The position numbers were made by a program, and so were the translations under genes. Of a stretch of 64,000 nt of DNA, positions 31,114-64,000 are shown piece after piece. The stretch is from positions 32,001 through 96,000 of the forward strand of contig CAZYIM010000001.1 in NCBI GenBank assembly GCA_964647565.1, written 5' to 3'. Source of the DNA: an uncultured Methanosarcinales archaeon (GTDB lineage Archaea > Nanobdellota > Nanobdellia > Woesearchaeales > CAZYIM01). The number at the start of each line of letters is the position of its first letter. The stretch's first letter is position 1. A model generated the notes under the pieces. That model was not told the DNA's origin and did not search any database. It saw only the letters and a list, made by a program, of their open reading frames with translations.

Positions 31114-32031
31114 ATGACTTCAGCAAATGCAACACAGCTTATCGGAGATATAAATCAACTCAAAAAAGAGAAAGAAGCAGTCATTCTCGTTCATAATTAT
31201 CAGAGGCCAGAAATATATGAGGTGGCGGATTATATCGGGGATTCTTTTGGATTGGCAAAAAAAGCATCAGAGCTCAAGGATGTTAAACGGATCATTTTCT
31301 GCGGAGTTGACTTCATGGCAGAGTCTGCAGCAATTTTAAGTCCTGATAAAGAGGTATACCTGCCCACTCTACAAGCCAACTGCCCTATGGCAGCCATGGT
31401 TGATTCTAAAAGCCTAAAACAACTGCAGGAACAACACCCAGATGCTGCAACAGTATGTTATGTTAACACAAGTGCTGATATCAAGGCCATGTCTTATGTC
31501 TGCTGCACCTCATCAAATGCTGAAAAGATAATCAAGGCCCTGCCCCAAAAAGACATAATCTTTGTTCCAGATAAGAATCTTGCAATGAACACAGCCAAAC
31601 AGCTGCCTGAAAAGAATATCATCCCCTGGAACGGCCATTGCTATGTACATCAGAGATTCACTGTTGATGAAATGAAGAAGTCAAAAGAGAATTATCCTGA
31701 TGCAGAAATCATCGCTCATCCAGAATGCCCTCCAGAGGTTGCAGAGTTGGCAGATTGTCTTTGCAGCACAAGCCAGATGATAGATTATGCAAGAAACAGC
31801 AAGGCAGACACATTCATTGTTTTCACAGAGGTCGGCATGACAGAGCGACTCAAAAAAGAAGTTCCAGAGAAACAATTCTTAACACCTGTAAAAACATGCC
31901 TTCAGATGAAGAAGAATTCCTTAACGCTGATTAAAAAATCCCTTACAGAAGAAAGGTATAGGATCACAGTGCCAGACGAGATAAGCCAAAAAGCCAAACT
32001 AGCTCTAGAAAGAATGCTTAAACTTGGATAA
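31114..32031 (+). CDS. nadA: quinolinate synthase
   Basis: HNYQ, GDS, FCGVDFMAE, CPMA, YVNTSA, CCTSSNA, CYVH, AHPEC and CLQMK motifs. Confidence 0.96.
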   Translation: MTSANATQLIGDINQLKKEKEAVILVHNYQRPEIYEVADYIGDSFGLAKKASELKDVKRIIFCGVDFMAESAAILSPDKEVYLPTLQANCPMAAMVDSKSLKQLQEQHPDAATVCYVNTSADIKAMSYVCCTSSNAEKIIKALPQKDIIFVPDKNLAMNTAKQLPEKNIIPWNGHCYVHQRFTVDEMKKSKENYPDAEIIAHPECPPEVAELADCLCSTSQMIDYARNSKADTFIVFTEVGMTERLKKEVPEKQFLTPVKTCLQMKKNSLTLIKKSLTEERYRITVPDEISQKAKLALERMLKLG

Positions 32032-56174: not shown

Positions 56175-57089
56175 ATGTATGATCTGGTTGGTCTGACCAA
56201 TGCTATCACAGACGTGGTTGTTGGGGTAAAGGAAAAGGATTTAACAAGGTTTGGTCTAAATAAAGGAGTCTATAATCGAAGAAGTGAAATCCCTTTTGAT
56301 GAGATTCTCAAATTTATGTCTTTGAGTGATTCTGTATCCATTCCAGGAGGCTCGCCAGCCAATGTTGTGCACGGAGTTGCTAAACTTGGTGGCAAGACAG
56401 CCCTCTTTGGCACTGTTGGCAAGGATAACTATGGCACCTTGTTCAGAGAGCATATTGTCAGTGCAGGAATAGATCCATTCATAAGAACAGTCGAGGGAAA
56501 AAGTGCGGTATGTTATATTCTAGTTACACCTGATGGAGAAAAGACCCCCTTTGCAGACCTTGGTGTTGCAAACCAGTTTGAATATACTAAGGAACTGATG
56601 GCAAATACAAAGATGTTTCACACTTCCGGCTATGAGCTGGTCAACAATCCAGAGAAGACTAGGGAGCTAATTGAATATGCATTGTCAAGAGGCGCCATTT
56701 TGAGCTATGACCTGGCAGCGCCCATTGAGATTGCAAAAGAGAGGAAACAGGTAGAGGATTTATTGGCTGAGGTTGATGTGCTCTTTTCTACAGAGGAAGA
56801 ATGCACAGAGATAATGGAGATGGAGCTTGAGTATGCAGAGGCACAATTAGCAGATATTGTACCGGTCCTGGCCTTGAAAAGAGGTGCAAGGGGATCCACT
56901 GTCTATAAAGGCGGGAATAAACAGGACATACCTATAGTTGATGTGAGGATTATAAACAGAAACGGTGCTGGCGATGGCTATGCAGCTGGTTTCCTGAGCG
57001 AATATCTCAAAGGCTCAGATGTTGAAACTTGCGGCAAGAAAGGCAGTGAATATGCTGCGTATGTTTGTTCTAGAGTGCAGCCGTTTTAA
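56175..57089 (+). CDS. PfkB family kinase (adenosine kinase-like)
   Basis: NAITD, PGGSPAN, KRGARGS and NGAGDGY motifs. Confidence 0.88.
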   Translation: MYDLVGLTNAITDVVVGVKEKDLTRFGLNKGVYNRRSEIPFDEILKFMSLSDSVSIPGGSPANVVHGVAKLGGKTALFGTVGKDNYGTLFREHIVSAGIDPFIRTVEGKSAVCYILVTPDGEKTPFADLGVANQFEYTKELMANTKMFHTSGYELVNNPEKTRELIEYALSRGAILSYDLAAPIEIAKERKQVEDLLAEVDVLFSTEEECTEIMEMELEYAEAQLADIVPVLALKRGARGSTVYKGGNKQDIPIVDVRIINRNGAGDGYAAGFLSEYLKGSDVETCGKKGSEYAAYVCSRVQPF

Positions 57090-59365
57090 GGGTAGGTTTC
57101 AGTCTTATGCAAGAAAAGTGAATCATAATCTTTAGCTAAACTTACATCATAATAGTGAAGACGCTCACCTAGCTCTTCAGGTCCAAAGAAATGTTTTGTC
57201 CCATCTGCTTTTGGAAAGGAAACTGCTATATTAAAATAGCTGCATACTGCCCTGAAGAGTTCTTCAGGATATCTGTCAAAAGAACTTGTTCCCAAGCATT
57301 TCCCAAGATCATATTCACTCTGGTTATGGGTAACCCCGACGAGTTTTGTTTTGTTAATCCTGTCTTCATACATCTCGATCTTGAGTTTTGTGTACTGCAG
57401 CTTGAATTGGTCAATGCCTGCAGGAACAAGACCTGCTTCATGTGACAAGGGCTCCATTACAGTTACATTATCAGTGTCAAGGTATGACTTGATCATTTCT
57501 GATGAATCATTGACATCCTTATAAGGCAGAACATAAACCTTACCACCTTCTTCAATATGTCTATCAAGATCTGGTTTCATGCAGAACTCATTGTACTGAT
57601 ACCATTCATTGTCTAGATGTGTTTTGGCCAGATCAGGATGCAAGATGATATAGGCTTCATATTTCCGGTCTGCAGGTTCTGTTTCGCCTGTAAGCATCTT
57701 TTCCTGGGTTATTGCTGTGATCTCAAGAGGTTTTATATCTTCAACGAACTTTTTACTTTTCATTTGTGCAATTCTACCCCTGAGTTCCGGCAAAGGGATG
57801 CCCATGTTGAATTCCAATAATCTCAATATGTTTCCACAAGCCTGATCATCCATTTTCTCGAAATACCAATATCTTGCGCCAGATAAAACACCTAAAAGCA
57901 CATCGTATTGATAAATTTCATCCAAAGTTTCAGGAGTGACAGTTTCCCCTTTTAGTTCATTCTGAGTGACCTTCAAAAGATGAGCTTTCCACTCTTCCTG
58001 ATATGGCAGTAAGTTTTCCTCACCACCATGTTTATTATAATGACGTTCAGTTGTAACATCTTCACCACTATTTATCTTATCTATATTATCTTGAGATTCT
58101 CTACTGTAAACATGACCATTTATCATTCCCCTGCTAGTGCATTCAAGATAATAATGTATGAAATCACTGCTTAAATTTTCATAATAGTACCTTATCTTTC
58201 CTGCCACCTCAGGATTGAACTTGACAGCTGTATGGCCGATGTCTTCATAGACATAATGAAGGTCATTCCAATTGCCTAATTGGTCTACATTAAGCTGTGT
58301 TAATAAATAGTCAAGCAGGCCCATGCCAATCACTCTCTTTTGGTCTGGAGTGATCTTGTCTTTGATTTTGCTCATTCTAAAATGCATTAATCTGAAATGG
58401 ATGCTCAGTCCTTGATCGATATTATCAATAACCTTATGATAGATTTTTGTAGCTTCTTCGTCTACAGCACCAGTTTCATCAAGCACTTTTTCTTCCAGTG
58501 ATTTTTTAAGAAGTTCTTTAACTGGATTTTTGGTTCCATACAGATGATAGAATGCGCCTATCGGCTCATTAGATCTTTTAACTATGGCTTTTGTTTCTTG
58601 TTTGGGTATTTCTACGCCATATTGAGGGAACAAGGATAATGATTCATCTGACAATGCCCTGAAATCATAAATGCCAAGCCATCTGTCCCAGAGTGAGCTT
58701 TGCCCTCTGTGATCAAAAAAGCCTGGAATCTGTCTTTTTACCAGTTCCTCATAGAACTTGATATATCTGTCATCAAACTTCTTGATATCCAATGGCTCCA
58801 GCTTAACTGATGCTCTCAATGGATTGAATGTAGTAGGTAATAGTAAAAGATTGACTCCATAATAATCCTTCAGCTCATCTGGAAGCAGATTATATTCTGG
58901 AACTTTTAATAGGGTTTTTTTAAGGTTTCTAGCAGAAATATCTGGGTTGGTCCAGGTCTTGCCCTTTTTTTCCAAGATGCCTGATTCAAGAAGAGCTCGA
59001 GGGATATTACTGGAGATTTCTGTGGCAGCTGTGTCCAATTCATTAAAAGTCTTGAATTCACCTGAATATCCTTGAAAAGATTTGAAGAGTGATGTTGCAA
59101 TAGCAAGATATATTGGAAATTTGAAATCTGGTAGAAGAATGCCAGGAATCCTATTAAGCCCTTGAGCAAGTTTCCTTATCCTATCCAGCTTGCTCTTATA
59201 CTCACCTTTTTGAAATTTGTTGTAAGCCCAGTCAACTTCTTGATCCAGGCCAAAGAATCCAAAGTCCGGCGGTGTATCTGCTGGGAAAAACAGTTCCTGA
59301 CCATCTTTATCAAGGGCAATGTTCCTAAGATCTGGAACGTCCGAATTCCTTTTTACAGGTAGCAT
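57086..59365 (-). CDS. large hypothetical protein
   Basis: About 760-aa ORF with no motif recognised; start uncertain. Confidence 0.7.
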   Translation of the reverse strand: MLPVKRNSDVPDLRNIALDKDGQELFFPADTPPDFGFFGLDQEVDWAYNKFQKGEYKSKLDRIRKLAQGLNRIPGILLPDFKFPIYLAIATSLFKSFQGYSGEFKTFNELDTAATEISSNIPRALLESGILEKKGKTWTNPDISARNLKKTLLKVPEYNLLPDELKDYYGVNLLLLPTTFNPLRASVKLEPLDIKKFDDRYIKFYEELVKRQIPGFFDHRGQSSLWDRWLGIYDFRALSDESLSLFPQYGVEIPKQETKAIVKRSNEPIGAFYHLYGTKNPVKELLKKSLEEKVLDETGAVDEEATKIYHKVIDNIDQGLSIHFRLMHFRMSKIKDKITPDQKRVIGMGLLDYLLTQLNVDQLGNWNDLHYVYEDIGHTAVKFNPEVAGKIRYYYENLSSDFIHYYLECTSRGMINGHVYSRESQDNIDKINSGEDVTTERHYNKHGGEENLLPYQEEWKAHLLKVTQNELKGETVTPETLDEIYQYDVLLGVLSGARYWYFEKMDDQACGNILRLLEFNMGIPLPELRGRIAQMKSKKFVEDIKPLEITAITQEKMLTGETEPADRKYEAYIILHPDLAKTHLDNEWYQYNEFCMKPDLDRHIEEGGKVYVLPYKDVNDSSEMIKSYLDTDNVTVMEPLSHEAGLVPAGIDQFKLQYTKLKIEMYEDRINKTKLVGVTHNQSEYDLGKCLGTSSFDRYPEELFRAVCSYFNIAVSFPKADGTKHFFGPEELGERLHYYDVSLAKDYDSLFLHKTETYP

Positions 59366-59432
59366 ATATGCAGAAAAACACACTTCCTCTTTATAAAGGT
59401 TTTGATTTTTTACCACTAATGGGTGATAAAAC

Positions 59433-60113
59433 TCAAAGCCTGTTTGTCTTTAAATACCATTCCTTGCGGAACTGGATTAAGAAGGATCTCATAAATGTAT
59501 GACGATCTTCTGCAAGCTTATGCGCAGTCTCTGTATTCATGTTATCCTTTAATTTCAGCAGTTTATCATAGAAATGATGTATTGCAGATGGTTCTGCAGC
59601 ATCATGCTCATCATATGTTGCTTTTTCCTGTACCAGATCAGGATTCCAAAGAGCCATCTTGTGTGCCCCTGCATAGGAAAAAGCCCTTGAAACGCCTATA
59701 GCCCCTAATGCATCAAGGTTGTCTGCGTCCTGAACAATCAAAGTGTTGATGTCAGTGACCTGGTTGCCTTTTTTAGAGAATGAATAGTTCTCGTGATGTT
59801 CTATGCAGTAAAGGATCATTTTTTGCTTATCCAATGGCATCCTGCACTCATCCAGAATAATCTTGGCTTCACCTAAAGATTCCTTGGGAGAAACATATTG
59901 TTCCCTGTCAACAGACATGAACCTGTGCAGGTCATGGATAGAAAGGGCAGTACCGATCACCAATCTGTCGCCACCTTCACGCTCCTGTATATAAAGGCCT
60001 AGATCTCGTGCTCTCTTGTGATGGTAGAGATCATGATCAGGCGAAAAACAATCAGTATACAACTCCATATGCTTGTCCAGAATCATGAATAATTGTTCAA
60101 GCTGCTCTTCCAT
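59433..60113 (-). CDS. HD domain phosphohydrolase (YedJ-like)
   Basis: HDLYH, IHD, QDADNLDALGAIG and HFYDKLLKL motifs. Confidence 0.88.
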   Translation of the reverse strand: MEEQLEQLFMILDKHMELYTDCFSPDHDLYHHKRARDLGLYIQEREGGDRLVIGTALSIHDLHRFMSVDREQYVSPKESLGEAKIILDECRMPLDKQKMILYCIEHHENYSFSKKGNQVTDINTLIVQDADNLDALGAIGVSRAFSYAGAHKMALWNPDLVQEKATYDEHDAAEPSAIHHFYDKLLKLKDNMNTETAHKLAEDRHTFMRSFLIQFRKEWYLKTNRL

Positions 60114-60576
60114 AAGATTGGGAAAAATTAACTAGTTTATAATCCTTTCTTTTAAGGCGGACATACATCCTCTCGTAAGGGAATTGTTTGGTTCCAAAGC
60201 CATGCTCATCCCTAAGATAGAGTGCCCTGTTTGAGTCAAAAGCCACCTTGAAATGCGGTGTTTTCTGAGCCCATATAGACTCATAGCAGCTTGGTCCAAA
60301 ATGTATGAATTCGACAAGATGATCTTTCTGCCATTTCCGTTCCATATGGCAGTATTCTAATACGCTTGGTTTTCCCCAGTCCGGTTGTATATCGTCCTTG
60401 AAAAGATCATCAGAAGTGGATGATTTACCTTTTCTCGAATAGAATTCTAATTTCGTTCCCTTGGGTTCAAACAGCTGTTTAAGTTGTTCTTCAAAAGCCA
60501 GGAAGTTATCATACATAAGATCATAAGGTTCCATTGAATTAACTAGTTCTACCAATTGATTGTGGTTAAGAGACAT
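60097..60576 (-). CDS. hypothetical protein
   Basis: 159-aa ORF overlapping the start of the HD gene. Confidence 0.6.
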   Translation of the reverse strand: MSLNHNQLVELVNSMEPYDLMYDNFLAFEEQLKQLFEPKGTKLEFYSRKGKSSTSDDLFKDDIQPDWGKPSVLEYCHMERKWQKDHLVEFIHFGPSCYESIWAQKTPHFKVAFDSNRALYLRDEHGFGTKQFPYERMYVRLKRKDYKLVNFSQSYGRAA

Positions 60577-60649: not shown

Positions 60650-61174
60650 ATGAACGTAAAAGAAGCTATTGAAAAAAGAAGGAGTATTAGGAAGTATGAT
60701 GACAAAGAGGTTACCGAAGAGGTTTTAAGGGAGCTTATCGACGCTGCTAGACTGGCGCCGTCAGGCAACAATGCCCAGCCATGGTATTTCAAGATAGTTA
60801 CCAGTGCAGAGGACAAAAAGAAACTGAAGGATAGTAATATGTATCCGCAGGACTTTGTCTATACTGCACCAGTGCTTATTATTTGTTGTGCAGATCCAAG
60901 CGTCTATCCTGCTGGCGAATTCATCAAGGGCATGGATCATCCAAACCAGGTAAGGGCCATAAGGGACCTGTCGTTGGCTTGCGAGAATTTAGTGTTAAGA
61001 GCTGTTGAGCTTGGACTTGGCACCTGCTATATTGGATGGATGGACAAGGAAAAGGTCAAGGATCTGCTGGATATACCAAAGGATTACATTGTTCCCTACA
61101 CAATAACTGTAGGCTATCCTGCTGGTGGAGCCGGTGAGCCAAAGAAGAAGAGTGCTGACGATATTTTACTTTAG
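60650..61174 (+). CDS. nitroreductase family protein
   Basis: RRSIRKY, APSGNNAQPW, LGLGTC and VGYP motifs. Confidence 0.93.
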   Translation: MNVKEAIEKRRSIRKYDDKEVTEEVLRELIDAARLAPSGNNAQPWYFKIVTSAEDKKKLKDSNMYPQDFVYTAPVLIICCADPSVYPAGEFIKGMDHPNQVRAIRDLSLACENLVLRAVELGLGTCYIGWMDKEKVKDLLDIPKDYIVPYTITVGYPAGGAGEPKKKSADDILL

Positions 61175-61196
61175 TTGAACATATTCAGGTGGTTAA

Positions 61197-61664
61197 ATGC
61201 AAGAGCTATACATAGATGATATTATTGAGAAGACTAAGAAATTAAGCAAAGAGAAGAAGCATAAGAAGACAAAATTCTATAACTTAATTGGTGAAGTCGT
61301 GCCTGATGAATGCCACATCCATCTTTCTACCAAAGAATGCACTATAATCATATTTGACGAAAAAAAACAGAGCTACACGAAAGCAGCAGTAGATTATAAA
61401 TCAGGATCATATCAAGGTAGAACAATTCTCCCGACAGATGAAATTTTCAGTCTCGATAACTATAAAGCTACCTCCTCAATTATTCCAAGCTATTGCTTTA
61501 ATTATCCTTCTAATAAATGGACTGTTGGCCCGTTTATTCTGTTTGTAAAAAAAATATTCACACACAATCACTCTCCTGTTGCTGAAATCGGACAGTTGAT
61601 AGATAAAGATTATCCTGTAAAGTATTACGCACCAAGAACAGATAAGATACCAACAATAGAATAA
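61197..61664 (+). CDS. paralogue 1 of the tandem 'IPTIE' family, function unknown
   Basis: MQELYIDD...RTDKIPTIE; GGTGG RBS. Confidence 0.8.
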   Translation: MQELYIDDIIEKTKKLSKEKKHKKTKFYNLIGEVVPDECHIHLSTKECTIIIFDEKKQSYTKAAVDYKSGSYQGRTILPTDEIFSLDNYKATSSIIPSYCFNYPSNKWTVGPFILFVKKIFTHNHSPVAEIGQLIDKDYPVKYYAPRTDKIPTIE

Positions 61665-61666
61665 AA

Positions 61667-62119
61667 ATGCAAGAGCTATACATAGATGATGTGATTGAGA
61701 AAGCACATGATCTAGAAAAACAAAAGAAGTATAAGAAAAAGATTTTCACAGAACGTCTCTTGGCTTTGATGCCAAAAAAAGGTCACATAGTACTCAGCGG
61801 CAAGAGGGGAGATATCATCATTTATGATCAGAAAAGCCAGTCCTATAGAAAAGCTTTATTTGATATCGAAGACGGCAATCCGATTGCAGGAAACCAACTT
61901 TTTGAGATCGAAGATTACAAACCGTCCATACCAATAACTAATGAATACTTGATGGATGAGTTAACCACTGCTAAAGAAGCTGCAAATTTTATTTGTTTTT
62001 TAATAGGATTACATGACAAATACAAATCTCCAGTCATTGAGTTCGGCAGGAGAGCAAACAGATATTTTCCTATAAAGGCTTACTCTCAAAGAACAGACAG
62101 GATACCAACAATAGAATAA
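61667..62119 (+). CDS. paralogue 2 of the tandem 'IPTIE' family
   Basis: MQELYIDD...RTDRIPTIE. Confidence 0.8.
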   Translation: MQELYIDDVIEKAHDLEKQKKYKKKIFTERLLALMPKKGHIVLSGKRGDIIIYDQKSQSYRKALFDIEDGNPIAGNQLFEIEDYKPSIPITNEYLMDELTTAKEAANFICFLIGLHDKYKSPVIEFGRRANRYFPIKAYSQRTDRIPTIE

Positions 62120-62121
62120 AA

Positions 62122-62613
62122 ATGGAAATACCAACAATAGATGACTGGCTGGAAAAAGCAGATCAATTAAGCCAAAAGAAAAAATATAAGAACAAAAACC
62201 TAGTTGAGAGACTGGGCAATATAATGCCTAAAAAAGGTAAGTTTTACCTGTCCGGTAAGCAAGGCACTGTCATATATTTTAATATTCCAAGTGAGAGCTA
62301 TAAGCAAGCCATCCTGGGATTCAGTAATAAACAAGAGGCCCAGTTCGAATATAATTTAGAATATATCTTTCCGGGAGAAAAATCATTCAGTCTTGAAGGC
62401 TATAAAGCAACAATTCCAATAACCAACAAAGAATTTTTTTATTATCCCTATAAGTCAGAAGAAAAGCACAATGGTGCTCAATTCCTTTATTTTATCCTTA
62501 AGTTGTTCAAGGAGTACAAATCACCAATCATGCAGATAGGACAAAAAAAGAACAGGTTCTATCCGTTCCAGTTCTACGGCCCAAGAAAAGACAAGATACC
62601 AACAATAGAATAA
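62122..62613 (+). CDS. paralogue 3 of the tandem 'IPTIE' family
   Basis: MEIPTIDD...RKDKIPTIE. Confidence 0.8.
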   Translation: MEIPTIDDWLEKADQLSQKKKYKNKNLVERLGNIMPKKGKFYLSGKQGTVIYFNIPSESYKQAILGFSNKQEAQFEYNLEYIFPGEKSFSLEGYKATIPITNKEFFYYPYKSEEKHNGAQFLYFILKLFKEYKSPIMQIGQKKNRFYPFQFYGPRKDKIPTIE

Positions 62614-62615
62614 AA

Positions 62616-63107
62616 ATGGAAATACCAACAATAGATGATTACATTGAAAAAGCAGAAGACCTTAAAAAAGAGAAAAGGTACAAGAAGATGGGAATATGGC
62701 AGAGACTTTGCTATGTAATGCCTAAAAAGGGCAAGTGCCATCTGTCTGGAAAGCACGGCACTGTAATCATCTATGACGAAGAAAGCCAGAGCTACAGGGA
62801 TGCTATCTTATTTCATTTTGATAAACCAGAAGAATCATATAATTATAGATCACAGTATTTCCTTGCAGGAGAAAAGACCTTTAGTTTGGAAGGTTATAAG
62901 ATAGATACTCCAATTATAAATAGAGAAGAAAGGGGGACTCCTAGTGAAGAAAATGTAAACAAATCTGTAGTGCATTTCCTCTATTTCTTCCTTAATTTGT
63001 TTGAGGAGTTCAAATCACCTGTCATGCAGATAGGCCAGTTTGAGAACCGGTTTTTCCCCTTCCAATTCTACTCATTACGTACAGATAAGATACCGACAAT
63101 AGAATGA
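62616..63107 (+). CDS. paralogue 4 of the tandem 'IPTIE' family
   Basis: MEIPTIDD...RTDKIPTIE. Confidence 0.8.
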   Translation: MEIPTIDDYIEKAEDLKKEKRYKKMGIWQRLCYVMPKKGKCHLSGKHGTVIIYDEESQSYRDAILFHFDKPEESYNYRSQYFLAGEKTFSLEGYKIDTPIINREERGTPSEENVNKSVVHFLYFFLNLFEEFKSPVMQIGQFENRFFPFQFYSLRTDKIPTIE

Positions 63108-63126
63108 AAATATATAAGGTGATAAA

Positions 63127-63699
63127 ATGCAACAAGCAATATTAAACGATTTTTATATGTTAATCATAGACCTGTCAGCAAAAGCAGAAGAAGAAAAGGA
63201 AAACAAGCCCAAGGGAAAAAAACAGCTAGGTTTTAAGTTTCTGAATAAGAAAGATGTTTCAAAATCTGAGACTAACGAAATTTCCAATAAGATTGATGAG
63301 CTGCTAAAAAATAAGAAATTTCTGCTAAAGACTGATTGGGTAACTTATGTTATAGCAGACGAAGAAACAAAGACCTATAGAATTGCAGAATTTGACACAA
63401 TCAAAGGCCAGCCATGCCCTTCAGGACATTTGGTCAATATGAATGATTACAAGCCGGATACAGAGATGTTTATCACAGGTTTCCCTTGTTCAGAATATCG
63501 AAAGGATGGCGGTCCAAAGAATAGGGAGTCAAATACATTAAATTTTTTCGAATCACTTTTAAAGATGCACAGAGCTGAGATTATAGAGATAGGAACAAAT
63601 GAGACATTAGTGTCTACCCAAGCAATAAAAAAAAGATTCTATCCTATGAAATTCTATGGTCAAAGAACAGACAGGATACCAACAATAGAGGAGATCTAA
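63127..63699 (+). CDS. paralogue 5 (divergent) of the tandem 'IPTIE' family
   Basis: ...FYPMKFYGQRTDRIPTIEEI; GGTGA RBS. Confidence 0.8.
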   Translation: MQQAILNDFYMLIIDLSAKAEEEKENKPKGKKQLGFKFLNKKDVSKSETNEISNKIDELLKNKKFLLKTDWVTYVIADEETKTYRIAEFDTIKGQPCPSGHLVNMNDYKPDTEMFITGFPCSEYRKDGGPKNRESNTLNFFESLLKMHRAEIIEIGTNETLVSTQAIKKRFYPMKFYGQRTDRIPTIEEI

Positions 63700-64000
63700 T
63701 GAAAATGGAAGAACTATATATTGATGATGTGATTGAAAGGGCAAGAAAACTTCAAAAAGATAAGAAGATGAAGAAGAAAACAGTAGCGCAGCTTATACAG
63801 TCTGTATTGCCAACAGAAGGCCATCTCTATCTGTCAGGAGAGCTTGGGACTGTGATTATTTTCGACGATGAAAACAAGATCTATAAAGAGGCTGTCTTGG
63901 ATGTTCGAAAATGCCAACCACTTCCCGGCAATAAGATATTTAGTCTTGCTAATCACAAGTCCAACTCTCCTATAGAGACTGCTTATTATGATGCAGCAGG
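63699..64000 (+). CDS. paralogue 6 of the tandem family, truncated by the window edge
   Basis: Translated by hand: MKMEELYIDDVIERARKLQKDKK...LPTEGHLYLSGELGTVIIFDDENKIYKEA...; TAATG overlap with paralogue 5. Confidence 0.8.
   Translation, partial: MKMEELYIDDVIERARKLQKDKKMKKKTVAQLIQSVLPTEGHLYLSGELGTVIIFDDENKIYKEAVLDVRKCQPLPGNKIFSLANHKSNSPIETAYYDAA

Follow-up and report, generated by a model that had tools for sequence, protein, structure and literature searches.

A seven-gene array of diverged paralogues with an invariant C-terminal IPTIE motif in a DPANN archaeon, and a tentative model for its possible role in assembly

The right-hand end of the 64,000-nucleotide stretch analysed in this work (the window: positions 32,001 to 96,000 of contig CAZYIM010000001.1, from an uncultured archaeon of the Woesearchaeales) is occupied by an array of seven head-to-tail paralogues, all on the plus strand and all carrying the motif IPTIE at or next to their C-terminus; copy 7 lies just outside the right edge. 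Copy 1 (61197..61664) is an open reading frame (ORF) of 155 amino acids ending in RTDKIPTIE. Copy 2 (61667..62119; 150 amino acids, C-terminus RTDRIPTIE) starts 2 nucleotides past the copy 1 stop and has no Shine-Dalgarno (SD) sequence. Copy 3 (62122..62613; 163 amino acids), which also starts 2 nucleotides past the preceding stop, begins with MEIPTIDD and ends in RKDKIPTIE, and copy 4 (62616..63107; 163 amino acids) has the same N-terminus, MEIPTIDD, and the C-terminus RTDKIPTIE, its proline being encoded by CCG. Copy 5 (63127..63699; 190 amino acids) carries an N-terminal insert rich in lysine and glutamate, forms a long branch and ends in RTDRIPTIEEI. Copy 6 (63699..64190 in window-equivalent numbering, of which 63699..64000 falls in the window; 163 amino acids, C-terminus DTGKIPTIE) was completed from the extended contig (L008 2700-3191), and copy 7 (window-equivalent 64187-64756, L008 3188-3757; 189 amino acids) ends in NTDRIPTIE, with the synonymous codons ATT and CCG. 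The initial annotation of the window had described an array of at least six copies, five of them complete ORFs of 150-190 amino acids and the sixth running off the edge on the same strand: its coordinates matched the ORF list, and extension of the contig rightwards brought the number to seven.

The genes were tightly packed. Junctions 1>2, 2>3 and 3>4 read TAA-AA-ATG, copies 4 and 5 were separated by a spacer of 19 nucleotides, copies 5 and 6 overlapped in TAATG, and copies 6 and 7 in ATGA; the spacings given earlier (2 nucleotides three times, 19 nucleotides and a TAATG overlap) were thus confirmed on the sequence. SD-like strings, read from the sequence, preceded copy 1 (AGGTGGT, 61187..61193, plus strand) and lay in the 19-nucleotide spacer before copy 5 (AGGTGAT, 63117..63123, plus strand), and the two additional codons of copy 5, GAGGAGATC, were themselves the SD-like string just before copy 6. 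Genes 2, 3, 4 and 7 showed no such string and started either 2 nucleotides past, or overlapping, the preceding stop; from this we infer termination-reinitiation at the array junctions, and hence a putatively fixed stoichiometry of the products. The packing is as expected for the translational coupling that had been proposed for these genes.

A genome-wide search with copy 2 returned seven matches, all contiguous, and no family copy outside the array in the 2.68-Mb genome (86 contigs, 86.9% complete). Four public sequencing runs of marine or seawater origin, from two studies, yielded contigs that matched the array at 100%, and single contigs spanned copies 1-3, 5-6 and 6-7; since these cross the gene junctions, an assembly artefact can be dismissed as the source of the array. 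At approximately 4x depth, these contigs showed neither variants nor joints nor differences in copy number; the public runs listed included none of RNA. Local GC content was slightly low (0.355). Pairwise identity between the bodies of the copies ranged from 20 to 53%, the highest value being that of copies 3 and 4, which formed a sister pair (support 100/99) and were the youngest duplicates. None of the copies contained a transmembrane segment (maximum 19-residue hydropathy no higher than 0.88) or a signal peptide, and their N-termini were polar: the earlier statement that both elements are absent was borne out by hydropathy, and the accompanying suggestion of export found nothing to rest on.

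The motif IPTIE was invariant in the seven copies and formed the very C-terminus in six of them, copy 5 continuing with EI. The two preceding residues were D[KR] in six of the seven and GK in copy 6. Consequently, of the invariant C-terminal D[KR]IPTIE described initially, IPTIE stood in all copies, the D[KR] part failed in copy 6 and the strictly terminal position failed in copy 5. The whole extension comprised about 10 residues (x-x-R-T-D-[KR]-I-P-T-I-E; hereafter the tail), and its alignment conservation was 0.84. Of the 11,185 stop-to-stop frames in the genome with 60 or more amino acids, only these seven carried PTIE at their end or no more than 2 residues from it, which is not attributable to chance, and the back-translated pattern T-D-[KR]-I-P-T-I-E-stop gave 0 matches in a collection of species-representative genomes. 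A sorting signal of the sortase/archaeosortase type was considered and rejected: the proteins end at the motif, have no transmembrane segment and have polar N-termini.

The family to which the seven proteins belong was not recognised by any of the resources used, as the initial annotation had anticipated. No family in Pfam-A, NCBIfam, PHROGs or PADLOC reached its cut-off for any of the copies, the best library matches being at chance level (FAIM1 with 13.8 bits against a cut-off of 22; phrog_18963 with E 0.0025 over 40 residues), no copy matched a PDB sequence, and the ESM Atlas gave no usable match; the fold searches described below were also negative. Nor was the family met in the literature, where the matches listed for IPTIE, or for DPANN tandem paralogues with a C-terminal motif, were irrelevant. 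When 1.84 billion representative proteins were searched exhaustively with an HMMER profile (E no higher than 0.001), 22 matches were obtained: six from the window itself, one spurious and 15 remote relatives (E 1.6e-20 to 5e-4). The spurious match, P0019 (1486 amino acids, seven stretches), was a fibronectin-type repeat protein whose score was inflated by its repeats, and was dropped. P0009, in which the domain of P0008 stands behind an unrelated N-terminal part, was kept out of the alignments; the remaining relatives were P0007, P0008, P0010-P0018 and P0020-P0022. Multi-domain fused forms of the family were absent from the HMMER matches.

The family was very rare in genomes as well. It was found in none of 40 other genomes of the same order, which measure 0.6-2.1 Mb and whose small size fits a DPANN lineage, and a broader profile detected it in only one of 400 other sampled genomes of the phylum (G324, E 1.7e-5), as two adjacent, overlapping and very divergent paralogues of 247 and 228 amino acids (L023 8297-9716, G324:C12) with long N-terminal extensions and no IPTIE. 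This tandem pair indicates that the family was duplicated in tandem more than once. No relatives were obtained from a genome-contig collection (searched with a five-sequence alignment) or from viral contigs; metagenome contigs yielded one, a singleton (L013) beside a VapBC-like pair, and a word-indexed homologue search found three proteins, none of them new. No gene context was conserved around the relatives. Most of the array copies lack an extra N-terminal insert of approximately 30-40 residues that is present in the distant relatives, which share with the array the core domain and an N-terminal strand of the type hydrophobic-x-hydrophobic-acidic, followed by a helix. One tyrosine was invariant across the 21 family sequences, one leucine and one alanine were nearly so, and no conserved polar or catalytic residue was seen; conservation restricted to these residues argues against an enzyme. 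In a maximum-likelihood tree, copies 5 and 7 were long branches and the group P0007/P0008/P0010 was sister to the array. The tree is compatible with a single origin of the seven copies (one label change, with which 66% of the bootstrap trees agreed), branch support being only 63/15.

All 15 distant relatives ended 1-7 residues past the conserved tyrosine, except that the poorly aligned P0022 continued further. The absence of the tail from all 15 makes it a lineage-specific addition; its presence in all seven copies means that it either arose before the majority of the duplications or spread from copy to copy. It is known only where the family forms a coupled array, the relatives that could be placed in context being the singleton and the tail-less pair mentioned above.

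The codons of the tail carried traces of both protein-level and DNA-level processes. Over the five IPTIE codons of the seven copies there were four synonymous differences (ATT, CCG twice and GAG) and no non-synonymous ones, and all four fell in copies 4, 5 and 7, which are those with a different downstream junction or none. Four synonymous changes out of four would be expected by chance with a probability of about 0.003, by a rough calculation in which transition bias and shared ancestry are left out of account. Judged from these codons, the tail is under protein-level selection. When identical residues were compared pairwise, however, the same codon was used in 337 of 797 cases in the body (0.42), against 121 of 159 in the tail (0.76) and 45 of 70 in the N-terminus (0.64). 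Genome codon usage predicts a same-codon frequency of 0.3-0.6 per residue; the value of the body lies within that range, so its synonymous sites are saturated and the ratio of non-synonymous to synonymous substitution rates (dN/dS) is unusable. Approximately 26 nucleotides were identical at junctions 1>2, 2>3 and 3>4, and these identical junctions, together with the uniform codons of the tail and N-terminus, point to homogenisation or constraint at the nucleotide level across the junctions.

Part of this uniformity resides in a 14-nucleotide string, ATACCAACAATAGA, which encodes both the tail preceding copies 3 and 4 and the N-terminus of the same copies, the two occurrences being 26 nucleotides apart. 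On the plus strand, it was located at 62102-62115 (tail of copy 2) and 62128-62141 (N-terminus of copy 3), and again across junction 3>4 at 62596-62609 (tail) and 62622-62635 (N-terminus of copy 4). The genome contained seven exact copies of it, all in the array (five tails and two N-termini); matches with one mismatch outside the array numbered four, against eight for a reversed-pattern control, that is, the background level. The relatives have the same kind of motif at their N-termini (LTIDD, ITIDD, VTIDA, IPIDQ), and the segment was modelled as a beta-strand in both structures described below. The identity of the tail with the N-terminal strand, in motif and in codons, makes the tail look like a copy of the first strand of the family, and the modelled strand would mean that each copy already has a site accepting a strand of this kind.

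The fold of the family was approached by modelling. AlphaFold2 gave a model of copy 1, from the seven-copy alignment, with a mean predicted local distance difference test score (pLDDT) of 83.7 and a predicted template modelling score (pTM) of 0.76, and a model of the relative P0007, from the 21-sequence alignment, with pLDDT 87.3, pTM 0.78 and a core near 95. Both followed a common plan: an N-terminal strand, helices, a beta-meander, a long helix and two last strands; copy 1 had three helices, one of them of 18 residues. Foldseek searches with both models against the PDB, and a search of BFVD, returned nothing at E no higher than 0.001, and VIA-align against 48,161 representative chains gave best Z scores of 4.2 and 3.9, against Z 7-8 as typically reached even by models that lack a clear match. 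Matches to the HK97 capsid and to encapsulins (Z 2.2-2.9, root-mean-square deviation (rmsd) 6-8 Å) were dismissed as noise. The proteins are therefore predicted to have an alpha/beta fold with no solved counterpart by these tools, a missing match not being proof of a new fold.

Mean pLDDT in the copy 1 model dropped to 71 for residues 71-80, 60 for residues 101-110 and 54 for the last block (151-155). Low confidence in the last block, together with the absence of the tail from the relatives, favours a flexible appendage over a core strand, and the tail is accordingly modelled as flexible. The idea of a constant tag, put forward in the initial annotation, is thus partly supported: its author had regarded it as mistaken if the family turned out to be a known domain with a C-terminus that is simply a core strand, and neither a known domain nor a confidently modelled terminal strand was found. 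Two variable segments had also been pointed out. Their variation in length and sequence was evident in the alignment, but the description of them as specificity loops over-read it: the segments with insertions and deletions coincide with the model blocks of lower confidence, as they would in any diverged paralogues.

Complex prediction was carried out for copies 2 (chain 1) and 3 (chain 2), each with the family alignment, in three runs with three controls. The pair reached an interaction prediction score from aligned errors (ipSAE) of 0.75 (0.74-0.77 over the runs), against 0.02 for the best control; 116 of 157 solved complexes attain this mark, as do 2 of 215 mismatched pairs, counts which are rough where own alignments are used. 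The runs shared at least 91% of their contacts, and the pLDDT of the partner was 84. The predicted interface was formed in copy 2 by residues 52-58, 85-94 and 125-137 and showed a pseudo-two-fold arrangement, with 24 of 25 alignment columns used by both chains. The prediction supports a domain that dimerises through one symmetric surface; in predictions of this type, close cousins of the true partner also pass.

Upstream of the array, 22 nucleotides before copy 1, lies a gene for a nitroreductase-family protein of 174 amino acids (60650..61174, plus strand; PF00881, E 1.6e-32), which is possibly the first gene of the array transcript, to judge from its position. The 73-nucleotide divergent intergenic region upstream of it contains an AT-rich, TATA-like stretch; a scan for bacterial-type promoters found 16, against 16.4 expected. 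On the other side of this region, and divergent from the unit formed by the nitroreductase gene and the array, are, on the minus strand, the gene of a 159-amino acid orphan (60097-60576) and, overlapping its end, that of a protein with a weak HD-domain match (59433-60113; Pfam E 0.014; phrog_3921, of unknown function, E 5e-14). A 776-amino acid protein further away (57086-59416, minus strand) had no match in Pfam, PHROGs or PADLOC, and its sole clear relative in the 400 sampled genomes of the phylum was a 972-amino acid frame in G082 (E 1e-26, 24% identity). Synteny with G324 by way of this protein and a 722-amino acid protein of that genome, both of which start with MVKN..LYK, was considered and rejected: the best BLASTP E value was 0.51, and the 776-amino acid query missed G324.

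Downstream, copy 7 faces a convergent gene whose stop lies 6 nucleotides from its own. This gene encodes an arrestin-fold protein of 300 amino acids (L008 3764-4666, window-equivalent 64763-65665, minus strand; Arrestin_N E 2e-14, Arrestin_C E 5e-12, Rgp1 E 1e-9). Arrestin_N was found in 10 of 401 sampled genomes of the phylum including its own, seven of them above the cut-off and one a weak match in G339, and the protein itself, used as a query, matched none of the 400 other genomes. Beyond it are a PNP/UDP phosphorylase, a DUF488 protein and orphans. The recombinase or dedicated partner that had been considered possible past the right edge did not appear in the next 16 kb, where copy 7 is followed by this convergent gene. 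Two further genes on the same side deserve mention. An ORF of 221 amino acids (L008 9582-10247, minus strand) contains only an N-terminal DEAD/DEAH helicase core (PF00270, E 4.5e-36), resembles the first half of a Ski2/Hel308-type helicase and may be split or truncated. A protein of 546 amino acids (L008 11853-13493, plus strand) combines a hydrophobic N-terminal segment with long coiled-coil-like repeats; its C-terminal tail of approximately 60 residues, rich in aspartate and glutamate, is extremely acidic.

The array probably encodes seven soluble, non-enzymatic proteins. As a tentative reading, which we prefer while leaving ample room for doubt, these would be co-translated dimers tied by the tail into larger mixed assemblies, in a manner resembling the IXI motif of small heat-shock proteins (sHSPs). 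The seven paralogues would be produced together in fixed proportions through translational coupling, and their folded domains would pair by one symmetric surface, as in the models, into homo- or heterodimers. The flexible extension of about 10 residues, with IPTIE-COOH at its end, would be a duplicate of the N-terminal strand motif hydrophobic-T-I-D-D and would act in trans, docking on another copy at the N-terminal-strand site or in competition for it; tails docked in this way would link dimers into larger mixed assemblies. In its boldest form, which is speculative and more doubtful, this reading would have a DPANN archaeon independently re-inventing the sHSP assembly principle on an unseen fold, the codons of the N-terminal strand having been duplicated to the 3' end to give a "donor strand" that daisy-chains dimers of seven paralogues, with its origin still legible as a 14-nucleotide direct repeat.

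Several observations weigh against an assembly held together by the tails. Part of the constancy of the tail is at the DNA level (same-codon use of 0.76 against 0.42 in the body), which needs no peptide function. Paralogue-rich alignments were used on both chains of the predicted complex, so that hetero- and homodimers are not separable by it. The tail and the N-terminal strand were not among the confident contacts of the dimer, which is not evidence of no contact, and conservation was no higher in the interface columns (0.52) than elsewhere in the protein (0.50). The two isoleucines of the tail stand three positions apart (I-x-x-I), so the tail is IXI-like in style only and the classic docking geometry of I-x-I is not directly transferable. 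Finally, all data come from one population, the contigs of the four runs and two studies being identical.

The same features could be accounted for in other ways. One alternative, which we regard as somewhat improbable, is in essence that of the initial annotation: the tail would be a short linear motif recognised by a single outside partner common to all copies (a chaperone, a protease, a scaffold or the arrestin-fold neighbour, for instance), to which the dimer-forming paralogues would be presented as interchangeable adaptors or clients. A tail that is predicted to be flexible, is invariant and appears to be under protein-level selection would suit such a motif, and its position outside the confident dimer interface would leave two tails per dimer free. 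Arrestins bind the C-terminal tails of their partners by beta-strand addition, and an arrestin-fold gene, uncommon in the phylum, lies 6 nucleotides past the last copy; this gene is convergent, however, and not co-transcribed with the array. The genome's own sHSPs carry similar C-terminal motifs, which makes the sHSP groove a conceivable receptor, but a docking system of general use would presumably be shared by other families as well, and the tail occurs on no other protein of the genome. Neither the back-translated motif, with its 0 matches in species-representative genomes, nor the gene context of the relatives, which is not conserved, points to a shared partner. We consider it unlikely that the tail is mainly a by-product of constrained or homogenised junction DNA, whether an A-rich, unstructured context for reinitiation, micro gene conversion or both. 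This would explain the elevated same-codon use in the tail and N-terminus (0.76 and 0.64), the three junctions identical over some 26 nucleotides, the confinement of all seven exact 14-mers to the array and the lack of SD-like strings before genes 2, 3, 4 and 7. Copy 7, however, retains IPTIE with no gene after it, and copy 4 retains it before the SD-bearing 19-nucleotide spacer; copies 4, 5 and 7 have drifted only synonymously (four changes against none), and a pure DNA signal would not fix the same five end residues in seven bodies that are 20-53% identical.

Even less probable is a diversified immunity, anti-defence or effector-like repertoire of a conflict system or mobile element, in which the tail would serve for delivery or recognition. 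Clusters of immunity genes typically consist of small, diverged paralogues arranged head to tail, and the patchy and very rare distribution of the family, the orphans among the neighbours and the slightly low local GC content would fit such an origin. PADLOC and PHROGs gave no meaningful match, however, the family was not found in viral contigs, and the window contains neither an integrase nor a tRNA; upstream of the array, its strand carries the nitroreductase gene and nothing toxin-like. Signal peptides and transmembrane segments are lacking, and the tight coupling suggests stoichiometric co-production and not alternative use. The effectors or immunity proteins proposed in the initial annotation thus drew no support from PADLOC or from the gene order. 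Least probable of all, and very much so, would be a C-terminal degradation or processing signal ensuring equal turnover of the products: C-terminal tags commonly act as degrons and the tail is exposed and flexible in the model, but its likeness to the N-terminal strand and its array-only origin would be left unexplained.

If mixed assemblies of tail-linked dimers did form, the array would be a compact example of a docking motif born by copying a strand that the domain already binds, and of a homo-oligomer diversifying into a hetero-oligomer of fixed stoichiometry, with the intermediate kept in the junction DNA. So far the family has been met in a single uncultured marine population and in approximately 15 remote relatives, and its gene context gives no functional clue. 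Two independent confident models without a solved fold make it a reasonable target for structural genomics, and few of the many unexplained genes of DPANN archaea offer predictions as testable as those made here for the dimer interface and for deletion of the tail.

A single resemblance to proteins of known structure recurred; it concerned the C-terminal half of both models, which resembled YdgH/BhsA/McbA (DUF1471), SrfN, YahO, RcsF and DUF74/YbjQ. These small domains, built of a beta-sheet plus helix, aligned over 64-74 residues with Z 3.0-3.9 and an rmsd mostly of 2.6-4.4 Å (6.8 Å for SrfN against the copy 1 model); the matched proteins are mostly periplasmic bacterial stress proteins. They differ from the array proteins in that only half of the latter is covered and no sequence similarity is present, and with Z scores too low for common ancestry, the resemblance would reflect a common arrangement and not homology. 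Polymorphic-toxin immunity arrays are like the present one in consisting of diverged small paralogues on the same strand. The array differs from them in having no adjacent toxin gene, no PADLOC match and no Pfam immunity family, and in the tight coupling and common C-terminal tail of its genes.

A further comparison is with the sHSPs. In passages of two reports (PMC3638399, PMC11604994), the C-terminal IXI motif of sHSPs is described as necessary for oligomerisation and as binding to a neighbouring dimer in its beta4/beta8 groove, for which an IXI near the N-terminus of alphaB-crystallin is said to compete. The sHSPs and the array proteins have in common a dimeric core (predicted, in the case of the array), a flexible C-terminal hydrophobic motif with an acidic end, and a similar motif at the N-terminus. 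The two differ in family, Pfam scans of the seven copies (E up to 0.1) showing no HSP20; the models of the array family are mixed alpha/beta with long helices, and four fold searches of the PDB listed no sHSP chain, which does not exclude one. The likeness implies no chaperone function for the array proteins. A search of the genome with PF00011, the model of the HSP20 (alpha-crystallin) domain, found two sHSP genes, on contigs C6 and C70, none of them in the array: one (G000:C6:32162-32473, minus strand) encodes a protein ending in KINID and the other (G000:C70:6200-6499, plus strand) a protein ending in VKID. Both proteins have the classic IXI at the extreme C-terminus, followed by an acidic residue, so that tails of a similar style are already in use in the organism.

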